From an uncultured archaeon (GTDB lineage Archaea > Aenigmatarchaeota > Aenigmatarchaeia > Aenigmatarchaeales > DAIDAN01), in contig CAZJGC010000001.1 in assembly GCA_964545795.1 (NCBI GenBank), positions 6,585 through 70,584 of the forward strand: 64,000 bases of DNA, in the 5' to 3' direction. Under the pieces are notes generated by a model. The model saw only the letters and a program-made list of their open reading frames with translations, ran no database searches and had not been told where the DNA came from. Below, in pieces: positions 2,733-57,735 of the stretch. The position numbers and the translations under genes are program-made. Positions within the stretch are counted from its first letter, which is position 1. Every line of letters begins with the position of its first letter.

Positions 2733-5225
2733 GTGATTGATATGATTAAGTCAATTGAATTTAAAATATTTTCGCCTGAAATGATAAAGAAGATGTCAGT
2801 TGTTGAAATAACAAGGCCTGAACTCTATGATAACGATGGTTTCCCCATAGAAAACGGAGTTATGGATCCAAAACTTGGAGTTATTGACCCGGGCATGAGA
2901 TGCAGAACATGCGGAAACACTGTTGGAGATTGTCTTGGGCATTTTGGGCACATAGAACTTGTGAAACCTATAACTCATGTTTTATATATAAAGACAATAT
3001 ACAAATTGCTTAAAATTACATGCAGGGAATGCGGCAGATTGCTTTCAAAGGAAAAGAAACCTGTCAAGAAATGCAGACATTGCGGGGCTGAGCAGGGCGA
3101 TATAAAACTTGAAAAGCCGACTACAATAATTGAAAACAAAAAAGTTCTTAATCAGATAAAAATAAGAGAGAGGTTGGAAAAAATACCTGATGAGGATTTG
3201 GAGGAAATAGGTTTTAGAGGAGGGAGGCCTGAATGGCTGATTCTAACTGTATTTCCTGTTCCTCCTGTGACAATGAGACCTTCTATAACGCTTGAAACAG
3301 GAAACAGAAGCGAAGATGACCTTACGCATAAGCTTGTTGACATAGTAAGAATAAATCAGTTGCTAAAGGAAAACATTATGATTGGCGCTCCTGATTTCAT
3401 TATTGATGACTTATGGGAGCTTCTCCAGTATCATGTATCCACATTCTTTGACAATGAAATAACAGGAGTTCCGCATGCAAGCCATAGGTCAGGAAGACCT
3501 TTGAGAACTCTTGCGCAGAGATTGAAGACAAAAGACGGAAGGTTCAGACAGAACTTGACAGGAAAAAGAGTTAATTTTTCATCAAGAACAGTTATCTCTC
3601 CTGACTGCAATATAAGCATTAATGAAGTTGGAGTTCCGCTTGTAGTGGCTAAAGTTGTTACAGTTCCTGTTGTTGTGAATAAGAACAATATAGAATATTT
3701 AAGGAAACTTGTTTCTAATGGCGAGACATGGCCTGGAGCAAGCTATGTAATAAGGCCTGATGGAAGAAAAAAGAAAATAACATCAGAAAATGCAAGCGAG
3801 ATAGCGTCAGAGATTGATGTCGGTTATGTTGTGGAAAGGCATTTGCAGGATGGAGACATAGTATTGTTCAACAGACAGCCATCGCTTCACAGAATGAGCA
3901 TTATGGCTCATCATGCGCGCATAACTCCTTGGCGGACATTTACATTGAATCTTTCTGTATGCGCTCCATATAATGCTGATTTTGATGGAGATGAAATGAA
4001 TTTGCATGTGCTTCAGACAGAAGAAGCGCGAGCGGAAGCAATAATGCTTATGGAGGTTCAGAGGCACATACGTTCTCCAAGGTTCGGAGGTCCTATAATT
4101 GGTTGTTCTCAAGACCATATTTCAGGAACATACATGCTTACAAGAAAGACTACAAAATTATCCCGTGAGGAAGTTTTCCAGATTATGTCAGAAATAGGAG
4201 CAGATGTTGAGGTTCCAGACAAAAAAACATTTACAGGAAAAGAAGTATTCAGCCTTATATTGCCTAAGGGGCTTAACATGGAGTTCAAGGCAAAGGCATG
4301 CAGGGGATGCAGGGCATGCAAGAAAACATCATGCGAATATGATGCGTATGTTTCAATAAAGAATGGACAGTTGAAAACAGGGTTAATAGATAAAAAAGCA
4401 ATAGGAGGAGAACATGGAAAAATTATTGATGTAATAGAAAAAACATATGGCACAGAAGTTGTTCACAGATTCATAGATAAAGTTGGTCTTCTTGGAATTA
4501 AGTATCTGTTGAAAACAGGATTTACCTTTGGATTAGATGATATTGATATATCTGAACATTCTGTAAATGAAATAAAGGAAAAGGTAAATGAATTAAAGAA
4601 GGATGTTTCAGTTGTGATATCTGATGCTGAGAAAGGAAAGGTTGAACTGATTCCGGGAAGAAATGCAAGAGAGAGTGTTGAGACGCATATAATGCGCATT
4701 CTTTCAAAGTCAATGGATGCTGCCGAGTCAGTGATATCCAAAGAACTGGTAGAAAACTGCGCAGTAGTTATGGCGCGTTCCGGAGCAAGAGGAGGAATTG
4801 CGCACCTTGTCCAGATGGCTGGTTTGGTTGGTCAGGAAAAGGTGCTTGGAGAAAGAATACATAGAGGATACTTTAACAGAACTCTTTCGCATTTCAGGCA
4901 GGATGAACTTTCTCCTGAGGCTCATGGATTTGTTACAAACTCTTATAAATCTGGTTTGAATGTTTTTGAGTTCTTCTTTAATTCAATGTCTGGTCGTGAG
5001 AACCTGATGGACAAGTCATTGAAGACAAAGCATTCTGGATACTTGGAGAGAAGGCTTATGAATGCATTGCAGGACTTGAGGGTTGAATATGATATGACAG
5101 TCAGAGATAACAGGGGAGTGATTATACAATTTAAGCCGGGAGAAGATGGAATAGACCCTGCAAAATCTGAGTGGGGAATGCTTGATGTAAGAACTATAAT
5201 TCAGAATATGATGAATAAGCAGTAG
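2733..5225 (+). CDS. rpoA1: DNA-directed RNA polymerase subunit A'
   Basis: 830 aa. N-terminal Zn-ribbon ([17 protein letters not shown]) and the catalytic [10 protein letters not shown] motif; sits between rpoB and rpoA2. Confidence 0.92.
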
Positions 5226-11434: not shown

Positions 11435-11803
11435 CTATTTCAGTTTTTCATATAATTTGTCCACAGTTCTTTTGTCAATTCTTTTTCCAAAACATTTATG
11501 CGGCACAAGAGCCCCTGAGAAAGTTTTTGGTATATGCAAAAGTTCATGTATAAGGGTTTTGTCCTGCTGTTCTTTGTTAAATGAGTCAAATCTTTCTGAC
11601 AAAACTTCTATTATATAGTGGGGTTCTATGGAAAGGGCTTTCTGCCATATTTTTGGGAATGACCATATTCTTGCGTTTGCTTTGCTTTTTGAGTTGTAAG
11701 AACGAAAGCATATTATTTTGCCAGGGTCTATGTGTTTAAATTCAAGTTTTTGTATAATTTCTTCAATTCTTTTTTTAATATCTTCTGCCAACTCAAGTTT
11801 CAT
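11435..11803 (-). CDS. putative metal-dependent hydrolase (HEXXH; COG1451/SprT-like)
   Basis: The internal Met at 11803 avoids overlap with rpl15p. HELLH motif near the C-terminus. The longer 183-aa ORF overlaps the L15 start and is unlikely to be real. Confidence 0.5.
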   Translation of the reverse strand: MKLELAEDIKKRIEEIIQKLEFKHIDPGKIICFRSYNSKSKANARIWSFPKIWQKALSIEPHYIIEVLSERFDSFNKEQQDKTLIHELLHIPKTFSGALVPHKCFGKRIDKRTVDKLYEKLK

Positions 11804-11908
11804 GATATTAAATGGGTGTAAGAAAGATTTATAAACGTTGTTTCTAAATGATAGCAATAAAAGAATATAAATATAAAAATTCATTGAATCTAAAAACAGG
11901 TGAAAGAT

Positions 11909-12316
11909 ATGACGGCAAGATTCAGAAAGAAAACAAGCAGGCAGCGCGGCAGCAAAACTCATGGCTGGGGCGCTAAGAAAAAGCATCGCGGAGCAGGTTC
12001 CAGAGGAGGTCGCGGTCAGGCAGGGTTAATGAAGCATAAAAAATCATGGATGATTAAAAATGACCCAAATCATTTTGGAAGAATTGGATTCAAGAAACCT
12101 GAAAGGAAAAAACCTTGCAGCATAAATCTTATAGAACTTGACAGCATGGAAGGCAATGAATTTGATTTGAGAAAATTAGGTTATGACAAGCTTCTTTCAA
12201 GAGGCAATATAACGCGGCCAATTACAGTAACTGTAGAGAGCGCAACTCCCAAGGCAATAGAGAAAATAGAAAAGGCTGGAGGAAAGGTTGTAATTCTTGA
12301 CAGCGTTCAGGAATAA
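11909..12316 (+). CDS. rpl15: 50S ribosomal protein L15 (uL15)
   Basis: Basic Gly-rich N-terminus (GRGQAGLMKHKK). An AGGTGA RBS-like sequence lies upstream of the ATG at 11909. Followed by secY, the conserved spc-operon tail order. Confidence 0.85.
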   Translation: MTARFRKKTSRQRGSKTHGWGAKKKHRGAGSRGGRGQAGLMKHKKSWMIKNDPNHFGRIGFKKPERKKPCSINLIELDSMEGNEFDLRKLGYDKLLSRGNITRPITVTVESATPKAIEKIEKAGGKVVILDSVQE

Positions 12317-35990: not shown

Positions 35991-36182
35991 ATGAGCCAAG
36001 AAGATGTGTTAAATATTTTGAAAGATTTAAAAGGGGAAGCCACTAGTAAGCAGATAAGAGAGATTGCAAAAAAGAGATTCCCTTATAGAACTCTTTATCT
36101 CTATGTTAATAATCGCTTAAAGAAATTGGAGAAAAATAAAAAAGTTAAAAAGGAAGGAGAAAAATGGAAGATAATACAATAA
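35991..36182 (+). CDS. small winged-helix DNA-binding protein (paralog of the upstream gene)
   Basis: 63 aa; overlaps the MTase start. Confidence 0.5.
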   Translation: MSQEDVLNILKDLKGEATSKQIREIAKKRFPYRTLYLYVNNRLKKLEKNKKVKKEGEKWKIIQ

Positions 36183-36946
36183 AAAATCTGTTAGAAAAAT
36201 ATCATATTAAAGATATGGGTAGTTGGGAAAATGTTAATGCAGATTTAATTATTACTGATCCACCATTTGGAATAGAATTTAGTGGTAAAAATGGAAACTA
36301 TCACAGAAATGGAGATAATGTAGTTGATGGATATGTTGAATGGAAAGTTGAAGAATACGCAGATAAAATAAGGCAATTATTAGAAACTATTAAAAAGAAT
36401 CTAAAAGAAAATGGACAATCTTTAATCTTCTCTGGTTGGAACAATAGCAATATCATTCATAATGAAATTTTAAAATTTAAAGGATTAACATTAAGGGGCA
36501 AAATGTATTGGGCTTATAATTTTGCTCCTGCGTGTAAATTAAGACCTGCTCATAATGTTTATGAAATCTTTTGGGTAACAAAAGGGGAAAAATGGCATTA
36601 TCATAAAAGATGCTCCACGATACACTGCGATAAAGGAGAACCAAATTTAACAACACTGATATTTAAAAGAGATTATAAAATGAATATGCCAAAATATCCT
36701 ACGAGATTACCATTTAAGCTGCTTCAATGTCTTTTAGAACATTTTTCAAACGAAAAAGATTTGATATTTGACCCTCTTGCTGGGAGTGGAATGTTGGGCG
36801 TTGTCGCTTATATGCTTAAGAGAAACTTTTTATTAGGGGATTTAAATAAAAATGGTAAAATTGTTTTTAAAGCATTATTAGATTATTATTTAAATAAAAA
36901 TGGTCTTGCTCAAGATCAAAAATTAATGACTTGGTGGAAAAAATGA
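36164..36946 (+). CDS. DNA methyltransferase, beta-class amino-MTase (N4-C or N6-A)
   Basis: Motif IV DPPF (IITDPPFG) precedes motif I (FDPLAGSGM). This permuted order is typical of beta-class MTases. Confidence 0.8.
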   Translation: MEDNTIKNLLEKYHIKDMGSWENVNADLIITDPPFGIEFSGKNGNYHRNGDNVVDGYVEWKVEEYADKIRQLLETIKKNLKENGQSLIFSGWNNSNIIHNEILKFKGLTLRGKMYWAYNFAPACKLRPAHNVYEIFWVTKGEKWHYHKRCSTIHCDKGEPNLTTLIFKRDYKMNMPKYPTRLPFKLLQCLLEHFSNEKDLIFDPLAGSGMLGVVAYMLKRNFLLGDLNKNGKIVFKALLDYYLNKNGLAQDQKLMTWWKK

Positions 36947-37632
36947 AGAAAGAAGAATTTTTGAAAATTGCAAAAGAAATTGCAGAAGGATTTAAAGATA
37001 TTCCTACATTATGGGACGGAAGAAAATCTATTTTAGAAATGAAAGAAGCAGGGTTTCCTCATTGGAGGCAAATGGAATGGATTGGTTGGTATTTTCAATT
37101 TTTGTGTGAAAAATTATTAAAAGATAAATTAGAAATACCAGGACCCAAATATGGTAATGTTGAATTTGATGGATTTAAAGTAATTCCTTGGGATTTTAAA
37201 GCTCATGCAATAAATACAAGCAGTCATAAAATCATTGTTAATGATAGTGAAGCAACATCAAAAGGTATTAAAGAATTTGGAAGTGTTGGACTAATCTTGG
37301 CCATGGGAGAAGTAAAATATAATGATGATGAGAGGACTTTTCAAAAATGGCATGAAGAATTAAAAGGCGGTAAATCTAAATATGAACTAGAAAGAATTAA
37401 AAGAGGAGCTTGGTCTAGATTAAGAAAAGTTGAATTTAAATTAGAGCAGATTTCTTTTATAAAAATAGATGATTCTGTTTTAGTTAAATGTGGCTCATTT
37501 CAAAGAGATTTTAGAAACTCTAATGGAACTCCAAGACGAGAAAAAGTTTTATTAGATTTAGAAAAATTAGATGAAGAAATTGTGTTTTTCTTAGATTTTA
37601 AACCAAAATCAAACCAGAAGAAGTTAAAATAA
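36931..37632 (+). CDS. putative restriction endonuclease partner of the MTase (hypothetical)
   Basis: 233 aa; overlaps the MTase stop by 16 nt (operonic). Possible PD-(D/E)xK-like D...DFK residues, not confirmed. Confidence 0.4.
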   Translation: MVEKMKKEEFLKIAKEIAEGFKDIPTLWDGRKSILEMKEAGFPHWRQMEWIGWYFQFLCEKLLKDKLEIPGPKYGNVEFDGFKVIPWDFKAHAINTSSHKIIVNDSEATSKGIKEFGSVGLILAMGEVKYNDDERTFQKWHEELKGGKSKYELERIKRGAWSRLRKVEFKLEQISFIKIDDSVLVKCGSFQRDFRNSNGTPRREKVLLDLEKLDEEIVFFLDFKPKSNQKKLK

Positions 37633-37634
37633 AA

Positions 37635-37650
37635 GGACGCCGCCCGTTAG
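37635..37650. repeat. right terminal inverted repeat of R-M cassette (GGACGCCGCCCGTTAG)
   Basis: Inverted copy of 35661-35676, 2 nt after the nuclease stop. Confidence 0.4.
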
Positions 37651-37946
37651 AAAAATCTTTGGGTAAGCATTGTGAACCGCTTAACCAATGTTAGATAAAG
37701 TTGCGAAGCAATTTTATTTTTTCTCTTTTGTTTTGTTGAGGTTAAGCGAAGGATTTTTCTTTTGATAAAGCAACCCCTCAATTTAGGGGTGGGTGGTGGG
37801 GGTTTTAGAGTTCGTTCTAACTTCTCCGTTCGTTCCACTCACTACGACCCTTTGAGATGCGCCAAAACTCCTTTTAAGGCATAAGATAGAAAAAATATTT
37901 ATAAAATTCTACTGAATATTTATCATTAAGAGAGGTTGAAATATAG

Positions 37947-38810
37947 ATGATAGACAAAAAGATTGAAAAAAACAAATCACAAATAAAAGAAACTATAATT
38001 TGTTTAATTTGTGTTATAATTTTCTTTGTTTTAATATATTATTTATATATTTTACTGTGTCCATTAATATTGTTTTCTTCTGTTACTGTTTCATTTCTTG
38101 TAATTATGTTTTATGAATTAATAAGAAACAAACTATATAAAAAACAATATCATAATGCTAACATTATTTTTTCATATCTGTTTCTGTTATCTTCTTTAAT
38201 ATTATTTGTTTCAATCTTATTTTTGTCTTTTCCAAATCAACCAGAAGGAAGAAATCTTACTCATCAGAATGTAAGTTTTGATATTTATATTATAAACCAT
38301 ATTTTCACAAAAGAGGATGTATTTAATTATATAAAAGAAGCAAACAAAATTTGGAATAAATATAATATTTCAATTTTGGCAGATGACATTTATTTTAAAG
38401 ATATTAATCTTTCTCGCGAGGAGATACAATACTTGTTTACAAAAGTAAATAATTCTAAGGAAGAGAATGAAGAATGTATAGAATATTTGCATATTCTTTC
38501 TAAATTTGTTAATAACGATAAAAAACTAAAAATTATTTTTTTAGATAATTTAGGAAGTAATATAAGGGGAAGGGGTTGTCTTTGTGGTTGTAGTTTTGCA
38601 ATAGTTGCTCCAGATAAATTATTTACTGATTTTACAGGGTGGGATCTTGCACACGAAATAGGGCATATATTGAATCTATATGATATTAATGAAAATATTA
38701 AAATGAATCTGATGAACAATCGACATAAACCTTTGTTTTTAAAATCAGATTATTTGTCGCAAGAGCAAGTTAACAACGTAACTAAAAAGGCTATAAGTTT
38801 GAACACATGA
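37947..38810 (+). CDS. membrane-anchored putative zinc metallopeptidase (HEXXH)
   Basis: Two N-terminal TM helices and a DLAHEIGHIL motif. Confidence 0.55.
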   Translation: MIDKKIEKNKSQIKETIICLICVIIFFVLIYYLYILLCPLILFSSVTVSFLVIMFYELIRNKLYKKQYHNANIIFSYLFLLSSLILFVSILFLSFPNQPEGRNLTHQNVSFDIYIINHIFTKEDVFNYIKEANKIWNKYNISILADDIYFKDINLSREEIQYLFTKVNNSKEENEECIEYLHILSKFVNNDKKLKIIFLDNLGSNIRGRGCLCGCSFAIVAPDKLFTDFTGWDLAHEIGHILNLYDINENIKMNLMNNRHKPLFLKSDYLSQEQVNNVTKKAISLNT

Positions 38811-38857
38811 AGTACTATTTTTGATATTTTATATAATAATTGTGGAAAGTGTTTAAA

Positions 38858-39271
38858 ATGCCAAATGAAATTTTTATAAGTTTGAAGCCGAAATTTGCAG
38901 AACTTATCAGGCAAAGAAAAAAGACGCATGAATTCAGGTCATACAAGCCGCGATATAAAATTAACAGGTTCTGGATTTATGTGACGCAACCGATAGCATT
39001 GCTAAAATATGTTGCGGAAGTTGGAGAACCAGCAGAGTATCCGGAAAAAATTCCTGAAACAGGCATAGGAAACAGGGAATTTAATAAAGGTTTGAAGACT
39101 TCTAATTATGCTTTTCCAATATTGCATTTATATGAATTAAAACAGCCTATATCTTTGCAAAAACTAAAAGAGAAATTTGGTTTTGCACCGCCTCAAAGTT
39201 TTGCTTACATCAATAGATATAAATCTCTTGCAGAATGCGTGAGAGCCTCTGGCTTAAGAAGGATATTCTGA
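38858..39271 (+). CDS. ASCH-domain protein
   Basis: GxKxxExR-like motif (RKKTHEFR) near the N-terminus; ~137 aa. Confidence 0.5.
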   Translation: MPNEIFISLKPKFAELIRQRKKTHEFRSYKPRYKINRFWIYVTQPIALLKYVAEVGEPAEYPEKIPETGIGNREFNKGLKTSNYAFPILHLYELKQPISLQKLKEKFGFAPPQSFAYINRYKSLAECVRASGLRRIF

Positions 39272-48689: not shown

Positions 48690-48725
48690 AATTTATTAAT
48701 AAGCGAGAAAGTATTTATGTTTTGT

Positions 48726-49466
48726 ATGTTTGATATTGTTGGAAACAGAAATAAAGCGGTTGCAATTATAGAAGGGGACAAAAAGCAGGCTGTTGAAATT
48801 CTGGAAAAATATAAAAATGTCAAATCTGTCTTAAAAAAGATTTCAGGCAGGGAAGGAATTTATAGAATATACAGGATGCGACTGCTTGCAGGCGAGAAAA
48901 ACACAGAAGTTGTGCATAAAGAATATGGCTATTTACTAAAATTAGACCCAAGAAAAGTTTATTTCTCTCCAAGAGAAGCTGAAGAGCGGCAGAGAATTGC
49001 AAAAAAAGTTAGAAACGGCGAAAGAATTCTTGTAATGTTTTCAGGCGTTGCGCCATATGCAATAGCCATTGCTGTCAAGAAATCCTGCGAAATAGTGTGC
49101 GTGGAAATAAATAAAAAAGCGGTTGAATATGCCAATGAAAACGTTATTATTAATAGGCTGAAAGGCGAAGTTGAAAATATATGCGCAGATATAAGGCAAG
49201 TGAAAGATAAAATCGGAAAATTTGACAGAATAATAATGCCCTTGCCTGAAACGGCTTATGAATTCCTGCCTGAAGCATTTGCTGTTGCAAAAAAAGGAGC
49301 AGTAATTCATTTGTATGCGATTTCCAGCGAAAAGACAATGTTTAAAGATATAGAAGATAAGATTTCTGAACAGGTAAATCTCAGATATAAAGTTATTGAC
49401 AAACAAAGAGTGTTGCCTTTTGGAGTCAGATTGTGGAAAGTCAGAATTGATATTAAAGTTTTATGA
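48726..49466 (+). CDS. Trm5/Tyw2-family SAM-dependent tRNA methyltransferase
   Basis: Met-10+ like motif (ILVMFSGVAPYAI). Confidence 0.6.
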   Translation: MFDIVGNRNKAVAIIEGDKKQAVEILEKYKNVKSVLKKISGREGIYRIYRMRLLAGEKNTEVVHKEYGYLLKLDPRKVYFSPREAEERQRIAKKVRNGERILVMFSGVAPYAIAIAVKKSCEIVCVEINKKAVEYANENVIINRLKGEVENICADIRQVKDKIGKFDRIIMPLPETAYEFLPEAFAVAKKGAVIHLYAISSEKTMFKDIEDKISEQVNLRYKVIDKQRVLPFGVRLWKVRIDIKVL

Positions 49467-52474: not shown

Positions 52475-52752
52475 AGCAGGAGAATAGACCGGGTTGTTCG
52501 GCGTAACCTGTAACCCGAAATCGTCGTTATGCGGGGGTCGAAGTCTGGGAGCGCTTGCAGAAGTCTGTGAAGGCCTGCAATTCAACTGAGAAGCTTCGTC
52601 TTCTGGAGCTGTGGCTATAGTGAACCGACCCAGGTCCGGAAGGAAGCAAGTCTAATCTATAGTTACGGCGTTCAGAAGGTTGCGGAGTGGAGGCGAGTTG
52701 CAGGACTACCTTCGCAGGTTTTTGCCGGCAATCTCAGATGCTTCTCCTGCTA
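52475..52752 (+). ncRNA. ffs: signal recognition particle RNA (7S/SRP RNA)
   Basis: ORF-free, GC-rich ~280-nt island. It contains the universally conserved domain-IV motif CCAGGUCCGGAAGGAAGCA. A terminal helix closes it (5' GCAGGAGAA pairs with 3' UUCUCCUGC). Confidence 0.7.
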
Positions 52753-54921: not shown

Positions 54922-54983
54922 AATTGGTGCTCCCGATGGGACTTTCAAAACAGGAAAAAACGGAATCCATGCTCTTCCTTAAG

Positions 54984-55013
54984 GATAAGGGGTTGCATGT
55001 TCTGGACAGCCCC
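54984..55013. repeat. hairpin repeat unit GATAAGGGGTTGCATGTTCTGGACAGCCCC (copy 1, inside the tRNA-Glu intron)
   Basis: 30-mer with a GGGG...CCCC stem; second copy 56 nt downstream. Confidence 0.6.
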
Positions 55014-55039
55014 GCTTTTCATGCTCTTCAATGGGGGTT

Positions 55040-55069
55040 GATAAGGGGTTGCATGTTCTGAACAGCCCC
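55040..55069. repeat. hairpin repeat unit copy 2 (GATAAGGGGTTGCATGTTCTGAACAGCCCC)
   Basis: 29/30 identical to copy 1. Confidence 0.6.
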
Positions 55070-55087
55070 TTATTTTGAACCCATGTC

Positions 55088-55408
55088 TCAAGCTCGAGAG
55101 GCTTGAATCCTTGACCGGACTAGACGACGGGAGCGTTTTTTTGTTGTTAAAACAGATTCCATGGTTTTTGTTATTGACCTCTGAGAGATTTTTATCATAA
55201 TAAATGCTATAACAACAACTATAAATGTTATAATTGTTGCAGCAATGAATTTATATATAACGCCTTCACCTGAAGGCACAAGACTATTTATAAATGCCTG
55301 CATTGCATCTCTCCAGCTAAGCGCCACCAAAAAACCAAGAGCAGTTATAATTGAACCTATTATAATATTTTTGAGATTCATTCTTTCTACATCTTCCTGA
55401 AATGTCAT
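55088..55408 (-). CDS. hypothetical membrane protein; C-terminal 47 nt overlap the tRNA-Glu 5' exon
   Basis: 106 aa, 2-3 TM. The basic tail KKRSRRLVRSRIQASRA is encoded by tRNA sequence, so the true stop/extent is doubtful. Confidence 0.35.
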   Translation of the reverse strand: MTFQEDVERMNLKNIIIGSIITALGFLVALSWRDAMQAFINSLVPSGEGVIYKFIAATIITFIVVVIAFIMIKISQRSITKTMESVLTTKKRSRRLVRSRIQASRA

Positions 55409-55416
55409 GACAACAC

Positions 55417-55556
55417 CTTATTAAAATGGTGAGCCCGGAGGGATTCTCATAACCCTTAATTTGAACCCCCGACTTACTGGTCCGAAGCTTCGACTTAAAT
55501 AATCAGTCGCTTTAGACCAAAAATGCTTTTGTCTGTCCAGGCTGAGCCACGGGCCC
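55417..55556 (-). tRNA. tRNA (isotype unresolved) with a 16-nt insertion in the T-loop and a 15-nt insertion in the anticodon arm; CCA encoded
   Basis: Minus strand: acceptor GGGCCCG/CGGGCUC (one G-U). D-loop AGCCUGG... T-stem GGGGG/CCCUC, with UUCAAAU then UAAGGGUUAUGAGAAU before the 3' stem. A + CCA + T-run. The anticodon region CGACU-GAUUAUUUA-AGUCG plus the GUCGAAGCUUCGGAC hairpin did not resolve into a canonical 7-nt loop by eye. Confidence 0.5.
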
Positions 55557-55614: not shown

Positions 55615-56007
55615 ATGGGCAAAACAAATAAAAAACCCGTTCTTCCAAGGCAGAAACTTAGTTTCGGGCAAAAAGCCGCGGATGAAGTAACAAAGTTTGT
55701 AGGAAGCTGGACATTTATATTTATTTTTCTTTTATATCTTTTTCTCTGGGTAATACTGAATGTTACAGCAATTGTGCAGAATTGGGACCCTTACCCGTTT
55801 ATTTTGCTAAATCTTACGCTTTCATGCATTGCGGCAATTCAGGCGCCTTTGATTCTGATGAGCCAGAACAGAACAGCTGAAAGAGACAGGATAAAGGCTG
55901 AAAGAGACTATATGGTTAACAGAAAAGCCGAGAAAGAAGTTGAAAACATGCAAAAAGACTTGGATGAAATAAAAGAAATGATAAGAAACCTTGAAAGAAA
56001 ATTATAG
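55615..56007 (+). CDS. DUF1003-family membrane protein
   Basis: Conserved core (WDPYPFILLNLTLS...QAPLILMSQNR) plus a coiled-coil tail. Confidence 0.55.
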   Translation: MGKTNKKPVLPRQKLSFGQKAADEVTKFVGSWTFIFIFLLYLFLWVILNVTAIVQNWDPYPFILLNLTLSCIAAIQAPLILMSQNRTAERDRIKAERDYMVNRKAEKEVENMQKDLDEIKEMIRNLERKL

Positions 56008-57360
56008 ATGCTTGCTCATATAATATTTTCCAAGTTTATATCCAAGAGTTCTGTAATATTCCCTGACTCCCACTCCCGAGATAACAGAAATTTTCTTAAA
56101 CCCATTTTCCATTGCAATTGCTTCAGCTTCTTGCATTAATTTCTTTCCCAAACCTTTATGCTGAATTATTCCCTTTTTATTAAGTCCTGCCTGCCTTCCG
56201 AATACATGGAGTTCTCTTACTATTGCCGAGTTCTCCAGCTCCTTTACGAATGTTCTTTCCTGCAGCCTTAATCTGAGAATTCCAAGCACTGTTTTATGCC
56301 TGTCTTCATATGATAAAAATATTTCCCTGCCTCCGGAAGCTCTATAATCTATTCTTTTAACTTTCAAAGAATCATAATCAATGTTTCTTCCATCCCTTAA
56401 AACATAACCTGCTTCCCTGCATCTTATGCATTTGCATTTCCTGCCGCGTGATTTTATTTCATCTCTAAGATGAGAATAAACACACTCTGATAATATATAC
56501 TCTGCAGGTATGTCGCGCATTACTCTCATAATTCTTACATATTCAGGAATATTCTTCTTTATTTCAATTATTGTTTCTATTATCTGCTGCGTAGTATAAG
56601 GTTTGTATTTTCCAGAATTGTAAAGATTCTCCAGTTCCGTTCCTTTTATAACAAGAGTTGGATATATCTTTATCTGGTCAGGCTGAAAACGTTCATCTGA
56701 GAAAAGCATCTCAAAAGTTTTAATGTCTTTTTCAGGAGAAGAACCTGGAAGCCCTATCATCATATGATAACCTACTTTGAAACCCGCCTGCTTTAATAGT
56801 TCTGTAGAAGAAACAACATCTTCTACTGTGTGTCCGCGTTTTATTTTTTTATAAATCCCATTATCAAGAGTTTGGACTCCAATTTCTACTCTTGTGCAGC
56901 CAAAATTAAGAAATCTTATTATTTCCTTTTCATCTAATTCCGGTCTTGTTTCAAGACACAGGGCAACGCATCTGTGTTTTGCTGTTTCATTTATCGCCTT
57001 CGCCTGTTCAAGGTTTTCCGATTCCTTTTCGTTTAGTCCGTCAAAACATGCCTTTACAAATGATTCCTGATAATTTTCAGGATAATTTGAAAAAGTTCCA
57101 CCCATTATTATAAGCTCAACTTTGTCTGTTTCATGCCCCAATATTTTCAATACCTTTAACCTTCCCTGCACCTGTCTTTTTCCATCCCATTTGCTTCTTA
57201 CAGCCCTGAGAACAACAGGACTTTTTGATGTGTAACTCTTTGGTATTCCAGGCTCAGAGGGGCAATATATGCAACTATTTGAACATGGAAAAGGCTTGAG
57301 CATAACAGCCACAGGAACAATCCCTGATATGGAACGCGTTGATTTTCTCGGTTTATGCAT
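56002..57360 (-). CDS. elp3: tRNA uridine(34) acetyltransferase Elp3 homolog (radical SAM + GNAT)
   Basis: CSNSCIYC radical-SAM cluster motif and a C-terminal GNAT acetyltransferase domain. Confidence 0.8.
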   Translation of the reverse strand: MHKPRKSTRSISGIVPVAVMLKPFPCSNSCIYCPSEPGIPKSYTSKSPVVLRAVRSKWDGKRQVQGRLKVLKILGHETDKVELIIMGGTFSNYPENYQESFVKACFDGLNEKESENLEQAKAINETAKHRCVALCLETRPELDEKEIIRFLNFGCTRVEIGVQTLDNGIYKKIKRGHTVEDVVSSTELLKQAGFKVGYHMMIGLPGSSPEKDIKTFEMLFSDERFQPDQIKIYPTLVIKGTELENLYNSGKYKPYTTQQIIETIIEIKKNIPEYVRIMRVMRDIPAEYILSECVYSHLRDEIKSRGRKCKCIRCREAGYVLRDGRNIDYDSLKVKRIDYRASGGREIFLSYEDRHKTVLGILRLRLQERTFVKELENSAIVRELHVFGRQAGLNKKGIIQHKGLGKKLMQEAEAIAMENGFKKISVISGVGVREYYRTLGYKLGKYYMSKHL

Positions 57361-57394
57361 AAATCTTTTAATAGATTAAAAATTATTTAAAGTA

Positions 57395-57425
57395 GGGGAC
57401 TGCGCAATAAATGCAATCCCCTACA
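57395..57425. repeat. hairpin repeat unit GGGGACTGCGCAATAAATGCAATCCCCTACA (copy 1)
   Basis: 31-mer with a GGGGA...TCCCC stem; second copy at 57494. Confidence 0.55.
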
Positions 57426-57430
57426 ACCCC

Positions 57431-57480
57431 AATAAGGGAAAGTGCAGAGCATGAATTTCCTTAACAACCCTTAGTAAAGG
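57431..57480. repeat. ectopic copy of the tRNA-Leu T-loop intron sequence (47/50 identical to 57666-57715)
   Basis: AATAAGGGAAAGTGCAGAGCATGAATTTCCTTAACAACCCTTAGTAAAGG lies 57 nt upstream of the tRNA-Leu 5' end, outside any tRNA exon context. Confidence 0.6.
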
Positions 57481-57493
57481 AGTATGCAAAAAC

Positions 57494-57524
57494 GGGGACT
57501 GCGCAATAAATGCAATCCCCTACA
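57494..57524. repeat. hairpin repeat unit copy 2
   Basis: Identical 31-mer except the last bases; ends 13 nt before the tRNA-Leu 5' end. Confidence 0.55.
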
Positions 57525-57536
57525 TTGCAGAAACAT

Positions 57537-57735
57537 GCGGGGGTCGCCAAACAGTCTTTCTCTAAATGAGAAGGGCTGGACAAAGCCAGGTCAAAGGTGC
57601 TAGGTTGAGGGCCTAGTTGGTAAAGTTTACAAAAAACTTCAACAATAGTCCATTCGTGAGTTCAAAATAAGGGAAGGTGCAGAGCATGAATTTCCTTAAC
57701 AAGCCTTAGTAAAGAAAGTCTCACCCCCCGCACCA
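57537..57735 (+). tRNA. tRNA-Leu(GAG) with insertions in the D-loop, variable region and T-loop; CCA encoded
   Basis: Acceptor GCGGGGG/CCCCCGC. UC, then GCC D-stem, a ~34-nt insertion, then AGCCAGGUCAAA-GGU. Anticodon arm CUAGG-UUGAGGG-CCUAG (G37). Oversized variable region. T-stem GUGAG/CUCAC, with UUCAAAA then a 52-nt insertion before the 3' stem. Discriminator A + CCA + T-run. Confidence 0.65.

Follow-up and report, generated by a model that had tools for sequence, protein, structure and literature searches.

A 64,000-nucleotide stretch of archaeal DNA (contig CAZJGC010000001.1 of assembly GCA_964545795.1, referred to below as the window) contains on its minus strand what reads as a tRNA-Glu(CUC) gene whose T loop is split by a long insert. 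What is this insert, and can a functional tRNA be made from such a gene? Judging from the sequence, we consider it likely that the locus is a real tRNA-Glu(CUC) gene with a 132-nt, protein-spliced intron of the bulge-helix-bulge (BHB) type at tRNA position 59/60, and that this intron belongs to a recently expanded family.

An interrupted tRNA-Glu(CUC) gene

The locus was compared with a syntenic ortholog, L029 (NCBI GCA_964461015.1, also present as another contig in JGI sample 3300023442, from which a contig of the present locus comes as well), which has the gene order of the window, Elp3, DUF1003, DUF5654, tRNA and DUF362, and whose proteins are 61 to 74% identical to those of the window. The parts of the gene in the window are as follows.

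54925-55134, minus strand: tRNA-Glu(CUC) gene with its intron and encoded CCA (direct reading; ARAGORN after in silico splicing)
55074-55134, minus strand: 5′ exon, 61 nt, from the acceptor 5′ strand to T-loop position 59, near-identical to the exons of the L029 ortholog
55098-55096, minus strand: anticodon CUC, in the 5′ exon
54942-55073, minus strand: intron, 132 nt, at tRNA position 59/60
54925-54941, minus strand: 3′ exon, 17 nt, made of U60, CCCAU, CGGGAGC, the discriminator A and CCA (direct reading)

Read from 55134 down to 54925, the 5′ part consists of the acceptor strand GCTCCCG, TC, the D arm GTCT / AGTCCGGTCAA / GGAT, the anticodon arm CAAGC / CTCTCGA / GCTTG, AGAC, the T-stem strand ATGGG and TTCAAA, followed by the insert. 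The tRNA then resumes with T, CCCAT, CGGGAGC, A and CCA, and this 3′ piece restores all five T-stem and all seven acceptor pairs. The mature sequence is identical at 76 of 78 positions to that of the L029 ortholog, including the T-stem AUGGG/CCCAU, whose strands lie on either side of the intron. Because the 3′ piece restores both stems and the mature form matches the ortholog so closely, a chance resemblance to a tRNA can be set aside.

Excision of the 132 nt in silico yielded a 78-nt RNA that ARAGORN called tRNA-Glu(ctc), which together with the direct reading confirms the minus-strand cloverleaf proposed in the initial annotation. The intron-containing gene, for which that annotation had recommended a tRNA-finder search, went undetected even when canonical introns were allowed. 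Indeed, ARAGORN reported zero tRNAs in the window both by default and with the canonical-intron search, and only spurious calls at a lowered threshold. The Rfam tRNA model gave a partial match of 16 bits, limited to the 5′ part of the gene; Rfam searches at gathering and E-value thresholds matched the signal recognition particle (SRP) RNA of the window and left the intron unmatched at E up to 10. The insert had been described as about 140 nt long and as running from 55074 to 54941; its presence in the T loop stands, but it measures 132 nt and both ends were off by one (55073 to 54942).

The 59/60 intron is absent from the tRNA-Glu gene of L029 and from 20 other related tRNA-Glu(CUC) loci. A scan of genome contigs with a tRNA-Glu pattern returned 12 loci, none from this organism and none with a T-loop intron, and a scan of metagenome contigs, a collection that does not include the contig of the window, returned eight, none with an ATGGG T-stem. 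Viral contigs scanned for the hairpin of the intron (described below) and for the 5′ junction gave no matches, and the exact intron occurred in no other locus of the genome, metagenome and viral contig scans. The loci of DUF362 homologs about 65% identical (L015 to L018) and of Elp3 homologs about 60% identical (L035, L036) have other neighbors and no tRNA, and the contig of the closest DUF362 relative stops 46 nt past that gene. The 2-kb contigs of the relative (L019, L020) break just past the DUF362 gene, in a manner similar to that of the Logan contigs inside the intron (see below).

Inserts of another kind were seen among these genes. The tRNA-Glu(CUC) genes of two Aenigmatarchaeota metagenome-assembled genomes (MAGs; L003, L014) and of four JGI metagenomes (L021, L023, L024, L026) contain D-loop inserts of 20 to 29 nt, which ARAGORN misreports as canonical introns in L003 and L014, i(32,23) and i(33,23), respectively. 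The remaining Aenigmatarchaeota-type tRNA-Glu(CUC) genes retrieved are without inserts.

Predicted splice motif of the 59/60 intron

In the BHB rule that we applied, the cut falls two nucleotides into each 3-nt bulge, intron positions -6 to -3 pair with the four exon nucleotides that precede the 5′ bulge, and the 3′ exon continues into the outer helix. The elements of this motif and of the intron are the following.

55076-55079, minus strand: exon strand of the central BHB helix, U54 U55 C56 A57 (pairs U-A, U-A, C-G, A-U)
54944-54947, minus strand: intron strand of the central helix, UGAA, intron nt 127 to 130
55073-55075, minus strand: 5′ splice-site bulge, A58 A59 | A, predicted cut 55074/55073
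54941-54943, minus strand: 3′ splice-site bulge, A G | U60, predicted cut 54942/54941
55038-55073, minus strand: hairpin unit 1, stem UAAGGGG/CCCCUUA, with a 30-nt core at 55040-55069 (52.8 bits with the covariance model R1 of the hairpin module)
54982-55017, minus strand: hairpin unit 2, with a 30-nt core at 54984-55013, 97% identical to unit 1 (R1, 46.1 bits)
55031-55035, minus strand: decoy CCCAU within the intron, the same sequence as the T-stem 3′ strand (direct reading and fold)

In the 59/60 register UUCA and UGAA form four of four Watson-Crick pairs, the 5-bp T-stem serves as outer helix and the bulges are AA|A and AG|U. Shifting the register by -3 to +1 left no central helix, so that among these 59/60 alone works. 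Placement of the insert at 59/60 and not at the canonical 37/38, as first proposed, is thus borne out, this being the sole register that combines the BHB layout with the product T loop UUCAAAU, which is the T loop of the L029 ortholog and of every related tRNA-Glu retrieved. That introns at 59/60 are rare and restricted to some lineages was a fair remark, but it was already known: the position is an established non-canonical one (PMC4090602), and ARMAN-2 is known to have a T-loop intron with a relaxed BHB (PMC3488258).

The motif is of the relaxed hBH or bulge-helix-loop class and not strict hBHBh′. The strict form calls for two or more base pairs in both h and h′, and here h is the 5-bp T-stem while h′ is absent, with no contiguous pair in the strict register. 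The AA|A bulge runs straight into hairpin unit 1, making a multiloop-type junction without a continuous inner helix. AG|U is a canonical bulge; AA|A is one only if unit 1 stacks as the inner helix, and otherwise it lies in a multiloop or pairs with UUU. The initial annotation would have taken the lack of any BHB-compatible fold at the junctions as a refutation; such a fold is present, with a canonical 3′ half and a relaxed 5′ half. Relaxed-class motifs are cut solely by broad-specificity endonucleases (PMC5829648, PMC3488258).

The two copies of a 30-nt hairpin repeat noted at the outset are real and identical at 29 of 30 positions; a second repeat, of 10 nt, occurs at 55020-55029 and 54968-54977, and neither is expected by chance. 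The decoy CCCAU is followed by UGAA, so that the intron mimics both the 3′ strand of the T-stem and the partner of the central helix.

If the locus is a functional gene, processing of its precursor would follow the known archaeal pathway. The anatomy of the first step is shown by the sequence: U54 to A57 pair with UGAA near the 3′ end of the intron in a helix stacked on the T-stem, so that A59|A and G|U60 each fall in a 3-nt bulge, one per strand and separated by 4 bp. In the next steps a broad-specificity archaeal EndA would cut both sites and an RtcB-type ligase would join the exons into the 78-nt tRNA with the T loop UUCAAAU, the intron being released, probably as a circle.

Similar introns in hidden tRNA-Arg and tRNA-Leu genes

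Two further interrupted tRNA genes, missed by ARAGORN and Rfam, lie close to tRNA-Glu; neither they nor the intron family described here had been included in the initial annotation. The tRNA-Arg gene was revealed by alignment of the DUF1003-DUF5654 spacer with that of a closer relative, L034, of 78% nucleotide identity, and the tRNA-Leu gene came to light in a search for acceptor and T-stem halves that pair with each other. Run blind, with no knowledge of the exons, a BHB scan gave too much noise to place introns.

55427-55556, minus strand: tRNA-Arg(UCG) with three introns (L034 alignment; spliced form recognized by ARAGORN)
55532-55512, minus strand: tRNA-Arg intron, 21 nt, D arm
55503-55489, minus strand: tRNA-Arg intron, 15 nt, position 30/31
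55459-55444, minus strand: tRNA-Arg intron, 16 nt, position 59/60
57537-57735, plus strand: tRNA-Leu(GAG), type II, with three introns (spliced form recognized by ARAGORN)
57551-57584, plus strand: tRNA-Leu intron, 34 nt, D loop
57622-57645, plus strand: tRNA-Leu intron, 24 nt, variable arm
57667-57718, plus strand: tRNA-Leu intron, 52 nt, position 59/60

The tRNA-Arg gene of L034 has the D-arm and 30/31 introns and lacks the one at 59/60, which appears as a clean 16-nt indel relative to the window. The tRNA-Leu 59/60 intron is present in both the window and L029, and the variable-arm stem of tRNA-Leu shows a compensatory change between them (UGG/CCA versus CGG/CCG). We examined the splice motifs in a set of seven genes, namely, tRNA-Glu, tRNA-Arg and tRNA-Leu of the window and of L029 and tRNA-Arg of L034, all of which were recognized by ARAGORN once spliced. 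They contain 17 introns, and with the register set by tRNA structure alone, the central helix has four of four pairs in 12 introns, three of four in 4 and one of four in 1, although the 17 are not independent tests because several are orthologous. The pattern shows a lineage that appears to rely on BHB splicing at many tRNA positions.

The L029 genes carry their own introns in the T arm. In its tRNA-Glu gene, where 59/60 is empty, there are introns of 37 nt in the D loop and 25 nt at 53/54, the latter with a strict hBHBh′ motif (H helix CAUG/CAUG, bulges GG|A and AA|U, 7-bp inner helix). Strict-BHB introns at 53/54, both ending in CATGAA, are found in the tRNA-Glu (~3992-4131) and tRNA-Arg (~3603-3720) genes of L029, on the plus strand; they may represent a second, lineage-specific intron family at another T-arm position.

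The three 59/60 introns of the window begin with (A/U)UAAGGG and end with GAAAG or GAGAA. From nucleotide 1 the tRNA-Glu and window tRNA-Leu introns share 28 of 39 positions without gaps (P ~2e-9), and 21 of 32 over positions 8 to 39 (P ~2e-6). The tRNA-Glu and L029 tRNA-Leu introns, with the constrained ends removed, are identical at 25 of 29 positions, a score reached by none of 3,000 shuffles. A repeat search independently paired 55025-55083 with 57657-57715. Five copies of the hairpin module align over about 35 nt, sharing a common hairpin with one compensatory pair (G-C to A-U). On these resemblances we regard the tRNA-Glu and tRNA-Leu 59/60 introns, including that of L029, as homologous. 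The 16-nt tRNA-Arg intron probably derives from the tRNA-Leu family, but its similarity could reflect motif constraints alone.

Because the tRNA-Leu intron is found in both lineages and the tRNA-Glu and tRNA-Arg introns in the window alone, the simplest reading is that the first is ancestral and that the other two were gained recently in the lineage of the window. The tRNA-Glu intron consists of two tandem copies of the hairpin module that also forms the tRNA-Leu(GAG) 59/60 intron of the window and L029; on this reading it, and probably the tRNA-Arg intron, arose by copying into the same universally conserved T-loop site. There, any intron ending in UGAA-NN could rebuild the central helix; since the conserved T loop supplies half of that helix, one intron design would be spliceable from any tRNA.

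The family extends beyond tRNA genes. Besides the intron modules, R1 detected in the 64 kb just three more copies, all of them in the 5′ flank of tRNA-Leu, and every copy lies within the tRNA cluster at 54.9 to 57.7 kb; across all fetched loci it found solely the two modules of the L029 tRNA-Leu intron. The flank is organized as follows.

57384-57524, plus strand: X-Y-X block on the 5′ side of tRNA-Leu, with a repeat at either side of the intron copy; absent from L029 and L034
57431-57479, plus strand: tRNA-Leu 59/60 intron copied at 96% identity, not part of any tRNA, homology ending at the splice sites within 1 nt

Homology of the 57431-57479 copy extends from A59 and intron nucleotide 1 to one base beyond the last intron nucleotide. 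The X elements are two 42-nt direct repeats, 57384-57425 and 57483-57524, with the hairpin GTAGGGGA..TCCCCTAC, and are variants of the module. The whole block, of about 140 nt, is situated between the Elp3 start and tRNA-Leu, and both L029 and L034 are without it. By direct reading the tRNA-Glu intron has a matching layout, X - CAACCCC(C)A - ..GAGCATGAA.. - X. No AT-rich promoter-like stretch is left just upstream of tRNA-Leu, so that transcription may run through the block and give a long 5′ leader. An origin of the block by rolling-circle copying from an intron circle is not supported, as no junction of a 3′ end with a 5′ end was seen.

Precedents and alternative explanations

Position 59/60, the motif class, tRNAs with several introns and intron families are already known (PMC4090602, PMC4033280, PMC3488258). 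According to the literature on Thermoproteales and other Crenarchaeota (Sugahara 2008; Fujishima 2010, via PMC4090602 and PMC4033280), introns in those organisms are likewise protein spliced, occur at 59/60, 53/54, 30/31 and 22/23, number up to three per tRNA, can be similar across tRNA identities and are variably present among close relatives; intron transposition is known in Thermoproteales. The marks of a transposed family in the sense of Fujishima 2010 are found here as well, i.e., similar introns in tRNA-Glu and tRNA-Leu and presence or absence at the tRNA-Glu and tRNA-Arg orthologs. In contrast with the crenarchaeal hosts, the host here has a low GC content and is probably a DPANN archaeon resembling Aenigmatarchaeota, and the tRNA-Glu intron is 132 nt long, where non-canonical introns are quoted as "less than 100 nt" (PMC4033280), and is built of tandem hairpin modules. 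The pre-tRNA-Cys of ARMAN-2 (Ca. Micrarchaeum) is another parallel, with a DPANN host, a T-loop intron and a relaxed BHB that needs a broad-specificity endonuclease (PMC3488258, PMC3239211). The two introns differ in tRNA species, length and content, and cleavage by the epsilon2 EndA was demonstrated experimentally in ARMAN-2, whereas the tRNA-Glu intron is known from its sequence. For Caldiarchaeum subterraneum a mobile-element model of tRNA gene disruption was put forward (PMC3293823); there too, members of a population differ in the introns at a single tRNA locus, which was taken as a sign of recent gain, but the element is 1.8 kb long and encodes a recombinase; the tRNA-Glu insert is without an open reading frame (ORF), terminal inverted repeats or a target-site duplication. 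What stands out at the present locus is the 132-nt length, the construction from tandem hairpin modules, a host that is probably DPANN, and a local, recent expansion that includes a splice-site-bounded copy outside any tRNA, a feature of which we found no report in the accessible literature on such introns.

Several observations weigh against a functional, spliced gene. In the strict register, the inner helix has no contiguous pairs and forms five of seven pairs with two mismatches. The predicted thermodynamics are not decisive: we count the position of the constrained BHB fold, above the minimum by 1.3 kcal/mol for the T arm alone and by 2.1 kcal/mol for the whole precursor, in favor of the motif, and against it that the central helix has a pair probability of about 0.06 in the isolated-RNA ensemble and that the unconstrained minimum-energy fold pairs AUGGG with the decoy CCCAU at 55031-55035. 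Neither EndA nor RtcB was found among the 40 ORFs of the window that were scanned, and the motif needs a broad-specificity endonuclease. On the supporting side, a relaxed-BHB T-loop intron is cleaved by the EndA of ARMAN-2 (PMC3488258), and DPANN EndAs with an L3 loop accompany disrupted tRNA genes (PMC5829648). Since the insertion is recent, with repeats 96 to 97% identical, the intact exons are no proof of continued function, and the organism could do without tRNA-Glu(CUC) should it have a tRNA-Glu(UUC). Finally, the module copy outside any tRNA indicates that the family is not limited to spliceable contexts.

Could the intron be mobile in its own right? Tentatively, we envisage that it is excised, probably as a circle, after which its sequence returns to the DNA at other positions. 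The preferred target would be the universal T-loop sequence UUCAAA, where the UGAA-AG tail would rebuild a spliceable motif; tRNA-Leu would be the donor and tRNA-Glu and tRNA-Arg the recipients, within 2.8 kb, with an occasional insertion elsewhere, as at 57431-57479. The conserved, tandem-duplicating hairpin module would be the part that promotes copying. Mobility at the RNA level is in our estimation a speculative extension of the intron reading.

The main rival is a recently inactivated pseudogene, in which a block of hairpin modules was inserted into the T loop of tRNA-Glu(CUC) and GAG codons are decoded by tRNA-Glu(UUC). It would agree with the youth of the insertion (units 97% identical), with the occurrence of the same modules outside a tRNA, upstream of tRNA-Leu, with the missing strict inner helix, with the low ensemble probability of the BHB fold and the decoy pairing in the intron, and with the failure of ARAGORN and Rfam to recognize the gene. 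We nevertheless consider it unlikely. The last six intron nucleotides, UGAA-AG, fit the 59/60 BHB with four of four pairs, which a random insertion would achieve in about 1 of 256 cases; the homologous tRNA-Leu intron has been kept in two diverged lineages with intact exons; every tRNA seen in the lineage is interrupted, and nearly all the introns obey the BHB rule. In addition, no second tRNA-Glu was found in the window.

Alternatively, the intron might be kept for a functional small RNA, the hairpin module being released in linear or circular form after splicing, an explanation to which we attach a low probability. In its favor, 25 of 29 nt of the module are conserved between the tRNA-Glu and L029 tRNA-Leu introns even though the proteins of the lineages are only 61 to 74% identical, the hairpin is maintained with one compensatory pair, tandem duplication of the module has recurred (two copies in tRNA-Glu, two in L029 tRNA-Leu, three upstream of tRNA-Leu), and all copies appear placed for cotranscription with tRNAs. 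Yet no Rfam family matched the intron, direct reading of the intron strand revealed neither a pair of C (RUGAUGA) and D (CUGA) boxes nor a k-turn, and with five module copies alone the covariation support is thin. The similarity may also reflect recent copying or exchange between co-occurring lineages, as both come from JGI sample 3300023442. The intron of euryarchaeal tRNA-Trp, of about 105 nt, at the canonical position 37/38 and with a strict BHB, contains a C/D-box small RNA with recognizable boxes. Like it, the tRNA-Glu intron is long, structured and possibly endowed with a life after excision, but it lacks C/D boxes. An intron-encoded C/D-box small RNA was rejected, there being no match to a small nucleolar RNA-type Rfam family on the intron strand and no readable boxes.

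An assembly artefact, i.e., a repeat-containing insert misplaced between two tRNA halves, is highly improbable, because an identical locus is found in a JGI contig and independent Logan contigs confirm both junctions, L033 extending from the 5′ exon across unit 1 and into unit 2 as far as window position 54990 and L002 from the 3′ exon into the intron up to 54950. That both short-read contigs (SRR9849955) stop within the intron, at or close to the 30-nt repeats, would fit an artefact, but it would also be usual behavior for k-mer assemblers. A group I self-splicing intron was rejected, as such introns have a catalytic core of about 10 helices and more than about 200 nt, compared with 132 nt here, and Rfam gave no match at E up to 10. 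Insertion of a miniature inverted-repeat transposable element or insertion sequence was likewise discarded, with neither terminal inverted repeats nor target-site duplication at the insert ends and all copies in the 64 kb confined to the tRNA cluster. A CRISPR array was also considered and rejected.

The window is a segment of core archaeal chromosome with 36% GC, containing the SRP RNA, a ribosomal-protein operon and the genes for SecY, an RNA polymerase subunit, valyl-tRNA synthetase (ValRS), Cbf5, Trm5 and Elp3. The best named homolog of the neighboring DUF362 protein (61% identity) is from a Candidatus Aenigmatarchaeota MAG, and the most similar tRNA-Glu genes found also come from Aenigmatarchaeota MAGs; for these two reasons, the host is probably a DPANN archaeon in or near Aenigmatarchaeota.

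52477-52749, plus strand: archaeal SRP RNA, matched by Rfam RF01857 at 171.6 bits and located immediately past the ValRS gene

The DUF5654 ORF (55088-55408, minus strand) has no stop codon before tRNA-Glu and runs 47 nt into its 5′ exon; its counterpart in L029 is at 3754-4032. The tail RSRRLVRS is common to the L029 homolog because it is encoded by the tRNA. The head-to-tail arrangement of tRNA-Arg, the DUF5654 ORF and tRNA-Glu on one strand suggests a single transcript. Genes for a Trm5/Tyw2-like methyltransferase (48717-49466) and for Elp3 (56002-57360) adjoin the tRNA cluster, and G37 of tRNA-Glu and tRNA-Arg would be a substrate of Trm5. Elsewhere, an ORF at 11435-11986 (minus strand) matches a "putative phage metallopeptidase" family, and the region directly downstream of the ribosomal-protein operon (36164-39271, plus strand) encodes a DNA methylase followed by three ORFs without a Pfam match; this ORF and the methylase region may be defense genes or remnants of mobile elements.

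The locus exposes a gap in annotation, with three tRNA genes and seven introns within 2.8 kb where standard tools saw none in 64 kb. Incomplete tRNA sets of DPANN archaea (PMC5829648) can stem from intron-rich genes hidden in this way. How archaea come by new tRNA introns has yet to be established (PMC4090602). A likely donor (tRNA-Leu), recent recipients (tRNA-Glu and tRNA-Arg), empty orthologous sites and a splice-site-bounded copy are all available here, and together they make RNA-mediated and DNA-mediated spread of introns distinguishable by test. If the intron is indeed mobile, the locus would capture the gain of archaeal tRNA introns before and after the event, the donor, the recipients and the empty sites all being identified.

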